A DNA stretch of 63,668 bases, counting the filler, from an uncultured archaeon (lineage in GTDB: Archaea; Nanobdellota; Nanobdellia; Woesearchaeales; CAIVOO01), in the NCBI GenBank assembly GCA_903842985.1. It is 8 parts of 8 records of this genome, joined end to end, with 100 filler letters (N's around TTAATTAATTAA, not from the genome) between each part and the next. Parts side by side here need not be neighbours in the genome. Positions count along the whole stretch, not along the records: positions 51,727 to 55,445 come from CAIMOB010000022.1; 7 more parts are not named here. One strand, written 5' to 3'. The notes under the pieces are model-generated. The model saw only the letters and a list, made by a program, of their open reading frames with translations. It ran no database searches and was not told where the DNA came from. The translations under genes and the position numbers were made by a program. The first letter of the stretch is position 1; the number at the start of each line of letters is the position of its first letter. This document shows positions 9,650 through 52,702 of the stretch, in pieces.

Positions 9650-9781
9650 TCTTGCCTTTATCTTTGTTGAAACTGCTCTAGGCTTGTAAAGTATCTTGTT
9701 GCCGCAGTAAGGGCATCTGATTTTCTTTCTTAAGTACTCATCGCTGACCTTTTTATCACAGTAAAAGCATTTGTATTCCAT
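9647..9781 (-). CDS. rpoP: RNA polymerase subunit P (Rpo12), not in the ORF track
   Basis: 44 aa MEYKCFYCDK...IRCPYCGNKILYKPR...KAR zinc ribbon; lies between rpl37ae and pcc1. Confidence 0.92.
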   Translation of the reverse strand: MEYKCFYCDKKVSDEYLRKKIRCPYCGNKILYKPRAVSTKIKAR

Positions 9782-9841
9782 TTTTTACGACCTCCATGAG
9801 TAAAAAATGCCAGCAAATCCATCAGATTTGCGCTGCATTTT
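9779..9841 (-). repeat. family-A junction element, copy A3 (rpl37ae/rpoP)
   Basis: AAAATG-CAGCGCAAATCTGATGGATTTGCTGG-CATTTTTTACTCATGGAGGTCGTAA-AAAATG in mRNA sense. Confidence 0.85.
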
Positions 9842-10260: not shown

Positions 10261-11352
10261 ATGGAACCTGAACACAGAAGAAAGCTGAAGAGAATAGTGG
10301 AAGAGCTTAAGCAATATAGAGGCAGGCATACTGAACTGGTTACTGTCTTTGTCCCGCAGGGATATGACATTGTAAAGGTTATAGGCCATCTTCAGCAGGA
10401 GCAGGGCACAGCAGAGAACATCAAGTCAGCTTCCACAAGAAAGAATGTAATTGCTGCGCTTGAAAGGATGATTCAGCATCTGAAGATTTACAAGAAAACA
10501 CCGCTGAATGGCTTGGCAGCTTTCTCTGGAAATATCTCTGATAAAGAAGGCCAGACAGATGTCCAGGTATGGTCAATTGAGCCGCCTATTCCGCTGAACA
10601 TACGAATCTATCGATGCGACAAAGAGTTTGTTCTCGCCCCGCTTGAAGAGATGCTTGAGCACAGAGAAACCTATGGTTTGGTTGTAATGGACAGGAGGGA
10701 AGGCGACATTGCACTGCTCAAGGGAAAGAAAATAGTTCCATTGGTTTCAACACATTCACATGTTCCTGGAAAGTTTAAAACAGGCGGCCAAAGCGCGCGC
10801 CGTTTCGAGGCGAACAGAGATTTGGCTGCAAAGGAATTTTACAGGAGGATAGCGGAATACATGAAAGAGCAGTTTCTTGGAATGAAAGAATTGAAAGGGA
10901 TAATTGTCGGCGGGCCGGGCCCGACAAAATTTGATTTCATAGAGAGCGGGCAGATAACAACCGAAGTCAAGAAAAAGATAATAGGCATAAAAGATTTGGG
11001 CTACACAGGCGAATTCGGACTGCAGGAGCTTGTGGAAAAAAGCCAGGACTTATTGGCTGCCGAGGAGATTTCAACTGAAAAGAAGCTTATGCAGAATTTT
11101 TTTGAACTGCTCGCAAAGAAGCCGGGAATGGTGACATACGGCCCGATAGAGGTTGAGAAGGATTTGGAGCAGGGCATTGTCGATAAAGTTTTGATTTCAG
11201 AGGATTTGTCGAACGAAGTGGCTGACAAATTTGAGGAGATTGCAGAGAGGAAGGGCTCAGCCATACATTTCATAAGCATAGATACAAGGGAAGGCGTCCA
11301 GCTTAGGGAGATGGGCGGGATTGCTGCTATTCTGAGGTATGAGGCGCATTGA
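10261..11352 (+). CDS. prf1: peptide chain release factor aRF1
   Basis: NIKS, YRCD, GGQS, GGIAAILRY motifs. Confidence 0.96.
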   Translation: MEPEHRRKLKRIVEELKQYRGRHTELVTVFVPQGYDIVKVIGHLQQEQGTAENIKSASTRKNVIAALERMIQHLKIYKKTPLNGLAAFSGNISDKEGQTDVQVWSIEPPIPLNIRIYRCDKEFVLAPLEEMLEHRETYGLVVMDRREGDIALLKGKKIVPLVSTHSHVPGKFKTGGQSARRFEANRDLAAKEFYRRIAEYMKEQFLGMKELKGIIVGGPGPTKFDFIESGQITTEVKKKIIGIKDLGYTGEFGLQELVEKSQDLLAAEEISTEKKLMQNFFELLAKKPGMVTYGPIEVEKDLEQGIVDKVLISEDLSNEVADKFEEIAERKGSAIHFISIDTREGVQLREMGGIAAILRYEAH

Positions 11353-51946: not shown

Positions 51947-52021
51947 GGGCCTGTAGCGCAGCTTGGATAGCGCGGCAGCCTTCTAAGCTGTAGGTCGAGG
52001 GTTCGAATCCCTCCAGGCCCG
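51947..52021 (+). tRNA. tRNA-Arg(TCT)
   Basis: GGGCCTG/CAGGCCC acceptor stem, GCAGC-CTTCTAA-GCTGT anticodon arm, TTCGAAT T-loop; CCA not encoded. Confidence 0.96.
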
Positions 52022-52072
52022 TTAGGACTGGAGACCAGCAAATCTCTGATTTGCGCTGCCTCCAGGCCCGTT
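52010..52072 (+). repeat. family-A core inserted at the tRNA-Arg 3' end with a 14-bp duplication (copy A7)
   Basis: CCTCCAGGCCCGTT at 52010 and 52059, enclosing GGACTGGAG (inverted copy) and CCAGCAAATC-TCT-GATTTGCGCTG. Confidence 0.88.
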
Positions 52073-52120: not shown

Positions 52121-52230
52121 GCGGGGGTAGCCAAGCGGCTAAGGCGATCGCCTGCAGAACGACGTGTTTAGGCGCAAGCCAATGACATGCTGATAGCGAT
52201 TATTCGGGGGTTCGAGTCCCCCTCCCCGCT
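52121..52230 (+). tRNA. tRNA-Cys(GCA) with 37-nt intron at 37/38 (52158-52194)
   Basis: GCGGGGG/TCCCCGC acceptor stem, ATCGC-CTGCAG[intron]A-GCGAT, U73 discriminator. Confidence 0.9.
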
Positions 52231-52267: not shown

Positions 52268-52702
52268 ATGCACTGCGAACTATGTGGAAGGGAAGCTGAA
52301 CTTGTTAACGCAATTGTTGAAGGAGTTGAACTAAATGTTTGCAGCGACTGCGCAAGGCACGGAAAGCTTTTGGTTAGGCCAAAGCTGATTATTTCTAAAT
52401 CAAGGATTCAAGAAGATGAACAGGTGTTTGGCTACGTTGAAAACTATAATGATTTAATCAGGAAAAAAAGAGAAGCGCTTGGCTTAAAGCAGGAGGAACT
52501 CGCATTTAAAATAAATGAGAAGGCATCTTTCATACAAAAGATTGAAAGCGGGCACCTGAAGCCGAGCCTGAACACTGCAAAAAAACTTCAGAGATTCCTC
52601 AAGATTAAAATCATTCAGGAGCTTAAAGAGGAAAAAGTTGACCTGAAGCCGGCAAAGACAAAGGAATTCACAATCGGCGATTTCATCAAGCTCAAGAAGT
52701 AA
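52268..52702 (+). CDS. mbf1: archaeal multiprotein bridging factor aMBF1
   Basis: CELCG...VEG..L.VC..CA..G zinc ribbon plus HTH; TIGD C-terminus. Confidence 0.92.
   Translation: MHCELCGREAELVNAIVEGVELNVCSDCARHGKLLVRPKLIISKSRIQEDEQVFGYVENYNDLIRKKREALGLKQEELAFKINEKASFIQKIESGHLKPSLNTAKKLQRFLKIKIIQELKEEKVDLKPAKTKEFTIGDFIKLKK

Follow-up and report, generated by a model that had tools for sequence, protein, structure and literature searches.

REP/BIME repeats with TnpA-REP (RAYT), and IS200/IS605, involve small bulged hairpins without genes that have a conserved foot, and the REP/BIME hairpins have many intergenic copies, some in frame within genes, with the structure on one DNA strand (PMC8266576, PMC3733652). 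Both the bulge and a tetranucleotide matter for TnpA-REP, and IS608 has been retargeted through a change of its guide (PMC8266576). The element found behind a tRNA-Arg(TCT) gene of an uncultured archaeon shares these traits; its hairpin, core A, is a short imperfect palindrome with a bulge, and its multiple copies are mostly extragenic. It differs from REP/BIME, as these appear in the portions of the two sources cited here, in several respects: its foot lacks the GTAG or CGTC tag, a Y1 transposase is missing from five draft carrier genomes, the target duplication varies in length, and across 6 to 14 nt a second arm mirrors whichever target it adjoins.

The 3' ends of tRNA genes, tRNA-Arg included, are classic att sites, and the attL and attR of archaeal tRNA-integrating elements present the tRNA 3' end twice as a direct repeat (PMC3293823). 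The same direct repeat is seen here, but without an integrase, with the copies 49 nt apart, with an inverted copy, and with the same core at sites that are not tRNA genes. Archaeal bulge-helix-bulge (BHB) introns also occur as related sequences in different tRNA genes and positions, and part of them pairs with the host (bioRxiv 10.64898/2026.10.13.758758), whereas the present element is mostly found away from RNA genes or in the direction antisense to that of an intron.

Template-switch mutations likewise generate a reverse-complement copy of nearby sequence and multi-base compensatory change in one event, but as described in the cited part of PMC8794818 they are local, whereas here a constant foreign module of core and loop is found at many loci. 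Insertions with long target duplication resemble the present case in their variable direct duplication, in having no mobile gene, and in repeats that often span start or stop sites and keep genes intact (PMC2853133). They differ in their kilobase restriction-modification cargo, against a 35-nt hairpin here, and the cited portions of that source mention no target-mirroring arm. The layout is absent from the catalogues searched and is best filed as closest in kind to the small gene-less hairpin repeats; no description of it was found in the literature, most subscription journals and supplements lying outside the coverage.

The insert behind tRNA-Arg(TCT)

The window, meaning the whole stretch of DNA that was analysed (63,668 nt, filler included), comes from an 879-kb draft genome (G000), in which the tRNA-Arg site is on contig C22. 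An initial annotation of the window had reported that the tRNA 3' end is repeated 49 nt on, that an inverted copy with one mismatch lies between the two, and that the adjoining palindromic core is identical, except for its loop, to a copy at 9810-9836 on another contig. All of this was borne out. The features are:

51947..52021, + strand: tRNA-Arg(TCT) gene, host of the insertion (ARAGORN; Rfam RF00005, 70.8 bits)
52010..52023, + strand: X1, the left direct copy and working tRNA 3' end (repeat match; cloverleaf pairing)
52020..52027, + strand: likely left junction and relic of the family GA-loop-GA mini-hairpin (inferred reading of the junction)
52025..52033, + strand: X', inverted copy of the start of X, able to pair with X1 or X2
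52034..52058, + strand: core A hairpin with a 7-bp stem, variable loop, 2-nt bulge and 2-bp foot (covariation)
52059..52072, + strand: X2, the second direct copy, on the right; probably the original tRNA end, displaced together with its T-rich trailer
52121..52230, + strand: tRNA-Cys(GCA), a neighbour with a 37-nt intron, not part of the insert
X1 9779-9788, X' 9800-9809, core 9810-9835, X2 9836-9841, listed on the + strand: second core A copy of the window, at a minus-strand start codon (contig C14)
9599..9650, + strand: copy of the start-codon subfamily with a variant core foot (converted from positions on contig C14)

The two 14-mer copies are 100% identical at an offset of 49 nt, and X' pairs with X at 8 of 9 bases, the exception being a single G.A mismatch. 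The order of the unit on one DNA strand is X1, loop, X', core, X2. It forms a double hairpin, contains no gene, and belongs to a repeat family of Woesearchaeota-type archaea. X1 spans the 3' strand of the T-stem, the acceptor strand, the discriminator and the first trailer bases, and the reading of X2 as the displaced original end comes from relatives with an empty site (L021, L006), which run on into a similar T-rich trailer. More copies of the start-codon subfamily lie near window positions 2742, 16489, 18844 and 23987. No Rfam 15 family reaches its gathering score for the insert; only the two tRNAs do, and matches below that score were disregarded.

An assembly artefact is unlikely because the sister species G001 has the same trailer and because a 151-nt contig, from one study and possibly the assembly's own source, spans both copies with 0 differences. 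The contigs of four runs contain no 49-nt joint of an excised allele, but at a depth of 2 to 3 and from one study they have no bearing on excision. Elsewhere in this neighbourhood, the tRNA-Cys(GCA) orthologue of G001 (L002) has an extra 23-nt insertion near the 5' end of the gene, and one contig in one run, probably from another organism, skips the 37-nt tRNA-Cys intron. An open reading frame at 52268-52702 has an N-terminal cysteine pair motif and a helix-turn-helix-like part, and presumably resembles archaeal MBF1.

The core A family

The exact core pattern has six matches in G000, with none for the reversed control, and is carried by 4 of the 7 genomes of the family. About 20 looser copies are present in G000, mostly at start codons. 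Across the order, a looser pattern matched in 23 of 301 genomes (control 0), two of which, being unpublished, were excluded from every subsequent count. The stretches collected numbered 59, of which 38 are archaeal; the other 21 are bacterial, lack the layout, and were dropped before being counted as chance. The archaeal loci gave 68 copies distinct in their flanks, and 14 metagenome loci chosen by arm sequence were kept out of the statistics. Among named records that share the core and layout, most labels read Woesearchaeota, Nanoarchaeota or uncultured archaeon.

The core stem covaries. Over 23 distinct rows, 98.6% of cells are paired and three pairs have two-sided changes, a score reached by none of 500 shuffles, although it is inflated by kinship and by the foot fixed in the search pattern. 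That foot is CCAG, which the pattern itself specified, and it varies in the start-codon subfamily. Without the core, the bare layout (a repeat of at least 12 nt at 30 to 130 nt spacing with an inverted match between) occurs three times in G000, twice at tRNA ends, against 0 to 2 times in each of 15 shuffles. This is just modestly above chance, and the core family and the orthologue evidence carry the case. A loose de novo scan for the layout, with 83 matches against 22 to 33 in three shuffles, was too noisy for defining members.

Core A is found at tRNA 3' ends, tRNA 5' ends, start codons and SD sites, and inside tRNA genes. In the copies read by eye the gene is on the X1 side and the core is directed away from it, and the 3'-end and 5'-end copies are therefore opposite in transcript orientation. 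The target duplication is from a few nt to 46 nt long, X2 begins with CC in 60 of the 68 copies, and some copies (L033, L013, L089) have an AT-rich spacer of about 45 nt between X1 and X'. Tandem arrays of the unit are present at L046, L130 and L208; a long repeat at L158 was rejected as a target duplication, being a tandem copy of the whole unit.

Other structured repeats were noted in these genomes. Upstream of tRNA-Leu(TAA) in G001 (L062) there is a variant of the core, in which a stem change has been compensated, together with the relic of a partial tandem copy; a further hairpin, resembling the core B described below, follows the 3' end of that tRNA. Other stacked-hairpin families in G000 (C14:92720-93140, C38:8127-8170, C41:21878-21920, C46:1595-1640, C51:6108-6170) pile up in intergenic gaps, and some are nested within core A units. 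A near-perfect, operator-like palindrome of 20 nt occurs six times at fixed spacing in AT-rich intergenic DNA of G000 (C2:3655, C6:987, C9:15382, C51:1200, C54:24528, C57:4769).

The inverted arm and its local target

The layout recurs with many unrelated X sequences, as had been suggested from two copies, and X' is site-specific. Over stem positions 4-12, leaving aside the three initial pairs that copies have in common, the number of Watson-Crick pairs between X' and its own X2 is 4.1, and 2.5 with permuted flanks (maximum 3.07 in 5000 permutations); the test used 68 copies with 52 different X2 heptamers, among which those from kin and from orthologous sites are mutually dependent. Target-derived inverted flanks are indeed found at other, non-junction copies when the core is followed genome-wide, with arms of their own on the 5' side of tRNA-Leu(CAA) (G000, G001), at tRNA-Ala (G006), at tRNA-Thr and tRNA-Arg (G010), and at other tRNA-Leu and tRNA-Cys ends. 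The tRNA-Arg(TCT) gene of G010 has core A with a different X', which makes 12 of 12 pairs with that allele.

The arms overall have 65 non-Watson-Crick positions (29 of them G.T) beside 548 pairs, and at L209 the duplication is exact over 46 nt, yet the arm has one G.T. Faithful copying at the time of insertion therefore does not account for every arm. Of the 68 copies, 47 have an X' that pairs better on the left, 10 have one that pairs better on the right, and 11 show no difference, although the left partner was picked by a search that works in its favour (null mean 4.9 versus 7.7). Better pairing on the left fits travelling units better than fresh copying.

The arm at tRNA-Arg looks like a known family unit in which three bases have been rewritten to pair with the target. 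In the stretch 52020-52038, 16 of 20 alignment columns are identical to family units (L034, L046 in G003); one base has been deleted and three neighbouring ones substituted, the substitutions being precisely those that pair with this tRNA end, the ancestral state of the arm being taken from these relatives. The donor is not fixed, because units with the same score have their differences elsewhere. The tRNA end and the family loop have in common the four bases that open this stretch, which would fit a junction by microhomology. One GA-loop-GA module bears eight different X' arms.

In 19 of 68 copies the element strand can form tandem G.A pairs, against 0 copies for the opposite strand, irrespective of transcript direction, which points to a structure on one DNA strand and not in the transcript. 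A crude strand test on GNA triloops (15 versus 14) gave no strand discrimination. The mismatch in X' at tRNA-Arg sits at the motif position, six pairs from the core. It is present as annotated, and probably represents the G.A motif of the family, not decay.

Filled and empty alleles

Of the ten site pairs between G000 and G001, eight have a clean filled and a clean empty allele, with seven filled in G000 and one in G001; the remaining two aligned too poorly for scoring. Many start-codon copies share one X1-loop-X', and clean empty orthologues are present. Recent copies move as ready-made units onto matching sites. The tRNA-Arg(TCT) sites of the same-family genomes G004, G005 and G006 are empty, so gain in this genus is the simplest reading, and precise loss between X1 and X2 is possible.

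Unrelated cores with the same layout

A second core, core B, is unrelated to core A and has the same layout at six sites in G000: three lie behind tRNAs, one at the end of a protein gene, one close to the start of a gene and in its reading frame, and one in an orphan cluster. Across the order it matches in 4 of 141 genomes, and the three matches outside G000 have no clear X layout. One core B unit is behind tRNA-Ile(GAT) in G001, whereas in G000 it follows a paralogous tRNA whose 3' end is the same, each genome's filled site being empty in the other. Another unit brings a tRNA-Glu-type end to a site in G000 that is not a tRNA gene and is empty in G001.

Several of these places have further peculiarities. 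At C43:5550-5720 in G000 (L124) a cluster of core B relics lies with an orphan tRNA-Glu-type 3' fragment, and the site is empty in G001. The in-frame units near gene starts at C39:4720-4800 and C24:7340-7420 (L123) have a nearly identical X-X' arm, and the N-termini of these genes resemble class III signal peptides. The unit at a protein gene 3' end (L122, C38:4470-4560) lies between two possible stop-codon endings. Behind tRNA-Arg in G010 (L013) are two successive cassettes, of which the second has a third, unrelated core and its own inverted arm. Two other tRNA-Arg trailers (L014 in G025, L018 in G009) have direct copies of the tRNA end around different hairpins and no core A.

How the units may be copied

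On balance, the units are probably copied in by polymerase template switching at short matches, with fold-back rewriting of the arm. The nascent strand would leave its template at a short match to the element loop (4 nt at tRNA-Arg), copy loop, arm and core from another copy, and return upstream at a short C-rich match to the core foot, so that the target would be duplicated by a variable length and the gene left intact. Hairpin-primed fold-back synthesis, at insertion or later, would overwrite the arm with the complement of its new neighbour, at tRNA-Arg by changing three bases, and the retuned unit could spread to sites resembling its new X. Slippage between X1 and X2 would account for the arrays of tandem units, and precise excision could come about in the same way. 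Copies in tRNA genes, in an orientation able to form a BHB, would persist as introns.

Both the creation and the repair of stems by template switching are documented (PMC8794818). The three adjacent, target-fitting substitutions at tRNA-Arg would be a multi-base change of the kind that a template switch makes, given an ancestral state drawn from relatives and not from a tree. This mechanism is favoured by the site specificity of X', the filled and empty alleles, the eight arms on one GA-loop-GA module, the variable duplication with X2 mostly starting in CC, the one-strand G.A pairs, the tandem arrays, the same layout around core B, and the absence of the enzymes sought in the carriers. The layout, specificity, allelic polymorphism and strand bias are observed, the switches and their timing inferred, and no intermediate was seen. 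Several points tell against this mechanism: the repeated spread of one core within genomes is more typical of enzyme-driven elements, many arms are imperfect, X' more often pairs better with the left copy, and neutral persistence leaves unexplained the 45 nt at tRNA-Arg that are unchanged in G001. The initial annotation had suggested a basal stem built from the target itself, through insertion with template switching or selection for self-complementary sites. The arm does track the target and template switching remains the best mechanism, but the stem is not made anew at each insertion, given the ready-made X1-loop-X' shared by start-codon copies with clean empty orthologues and the reuse of units on matching sites.

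A wider view can be offered tentatively, in which these are a new class of minimal mobile elements with a rewritable guide and no need of a gene of their own. X' would pick targets by base pairing, each landing would reprogram X' from the new neighbour, and landings in tRNA genes would be a source of new archaeal introns.

It is also conceivable, if rather doubtful, that an as yet unrecognised, trans-acting single-strand DNA transposase or nuclease (TnpA/RAYT-like), perhaps viral or plasmid-borne, binds the bulged core and uses X' as its target guide, with guides drifting or being retuned after insertion. The REP-like anatomy of bulged stem and conserved foot, the restriction of the G.A motif to one strand, the landing of ready-made units on matching sites and the wobble tolerated in the arms would all agree with such an enzyme. 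Searches of draft carrier genomes, 64-99% complete, gave none of the families sought. The Y1 transposase (PF01797; control 6/14) and GIY-YIG (PF01541) were each found in 0 of 5 carriers, and in a second set of five so were the IS110 DEDD recombinase (PF02371; control 6/14), TnpB (PF07282) and a Y-family polymerase; the controls for the four Pfam families were positive. None of the four core-pattern matches on viral contigs has the layout, and plasmids gave no match. The length of the duplication varies, and to our knowledge IS200/IS605 elements make no target duplication. Two named classes do not fit: a MITE of DDE origin, since the inverted arm changes by site and the duplication runs from a few nt to 46 nt and is not fixed, and an IS110/IS1111 bridge-RNA element, since the five carriers have no DEDD recombinase.

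Copies inside tRNA genes

The reversed core was examined at 12 loci inside tRNA genes. A BHB helix of 4 bp is found at a plausible boundary in two (Gly L173, Pro L044), three of the four pairs are found in another 3/12, and seven have no convincing BHB in what was a crude scan. These in-gene copies are predicted introns. The copy at tRNA-Arg was rejected as a BHB intron; it lies behind an intact tRNA and in the opposite orientation to the intron copies.

These loci could suggest that the element began as an archaeal intron, excised by EndA, re-ligated into other RNAs and written back to DNA by a reverse transcriptase, the inverted arm being a consequence of having to base-pair with host RNA. 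Intron transposition has been proposed for Thermoproteales, and the same October 2026 preprint states that the route of intron DNA into archaeal tRNA genes is open (bioRxiv 10.64898/2026.10.13.758758). An intron origin would draw on the reversed core in tRNA genes, the BHB helix in some of them, and the single reverse transcriptase of G000. It is nevertheless unlikely, because the copies at tRNA 3' ends, tRNA-Arg included, and the intron copies point in opposite directions, the strand that forms the G.A motif is antisense to the intron copies, a reverse transcriptase is present in only one of five carriers (G000), and 7 of the 12 loci lack a convincing BHB in the crude scan. Given that the majority of copies are antisense or not in RNA genes at all, the intron seems to be one fate of an element that acts at the level of DNA. 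Archaeal tRNA introns and their transposition are reportedly the subject of Fujishima 2010, as cited in that October 2026 preprint.

The sole reverse transcriptase of G000 (PF00078; L142, C54:27908-28519, minus strand) is near a contig end and is, we presume, of the diversity-generating-retroelement type. A tRNA at C57:4545-4650 in G000 has an apparent T-loop insertion and is mis-called by ARAGORN.

Folding and conservation of the tRNA-Arg trailer

With the D and anticodon arms fixed, the lowest-energy fold is the cloverleaf with X' paired to X2, at -52.8 kcal/mol against -49.9 kcal/mol for X1 paired to X'. The second copy had been thought to absorb X' and so let the acceptor stem fold, but the pairing probability of that stem, with the same arms fixed, is 0.99 without X2 and 0.97 with it. 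X2 is therefore unneeded as a rescue, and this part of the earlier interpretation is withdrawn. In the unconstrained fold X1 pairs with X' and the 5' strand of the acceptor with X2, and the D and anticodon arms are misfolded too.

The 45 nt at 52024-52068 are unchanged in G001, while four-fold sites differ at 10,925 of 34,056 (32%). G001 keeps 10 nt of X2, exact over the part that pairs with X', and gains one more pair. The other four copies common to G000 and G001 have changed. The 45-nt identity could reflect selection on the fold or recent gene conversion.

It may be asked whether a host RNA function made the structure and keeps it, as a 3'-trailer fold for tRNA processing or termination and as a bistable translation switch at start codons. 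The unchanged trailer, the retention of X2 only where it pairs with X', the extra pair in G001, and the orthologous SD copies that last across genomes with compensated arms (L110/L158, L160/L174) would be expected of such a function. As the origin of the structure it is very unlikely, since sister species differ in which sites are occupied, the cloverleaf can form in the absence of X2, orientations in transcripts are opposite, and the four other shared copies have changed; gene conversion also accounts for the identity, and selection may retain a copy without having made it.

Extremely unlikely is an attL/attR scar of an integrative element that decayed to 49 nt, with X' as an attP remnant: it would explain the direct repeat of the tRNA 3' end, the AT-rich spacer of some copies and the integrase-like open reading frame that adjoins tRNA-Arg in G020 (L024), but tRNA 5' ends, SD sites and start codons harbour this core as well, a PF00589 integrase is missing from G000 although 4 of the 5 carriers searched possess one, core A is absent from L024 and from the 1.5 kb around four integrase loci, it occurs in 2 of the 13 different trailers of tRNA-Arg(TCT) type, each time within a short cassette, and we know of no att recombination that makes an inverted copy. 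The initial view that a simple att scar does not explain the site is upheld, and among the tRNA-Arg trailers of relatives, with flanks to about 1.5 kb, there is no full integrative element with core A.

Conclusions

A 24-nt core that lies outside genes, at their ends and within tRNA genes, with filled and empty alleles between sister species, makes the intron route directly testable. The hairpin shared with copies in tRNA genes may show how archaeal introns arrive. Short repeats at tRNA ends in DPANN genomes should not be taken as prophage scars by default. An element of 50 nt that leaves its host gene intact, has its arm retuned for each target and uses no transposase would widen what is understood as mobile DNA in reduced genomes.
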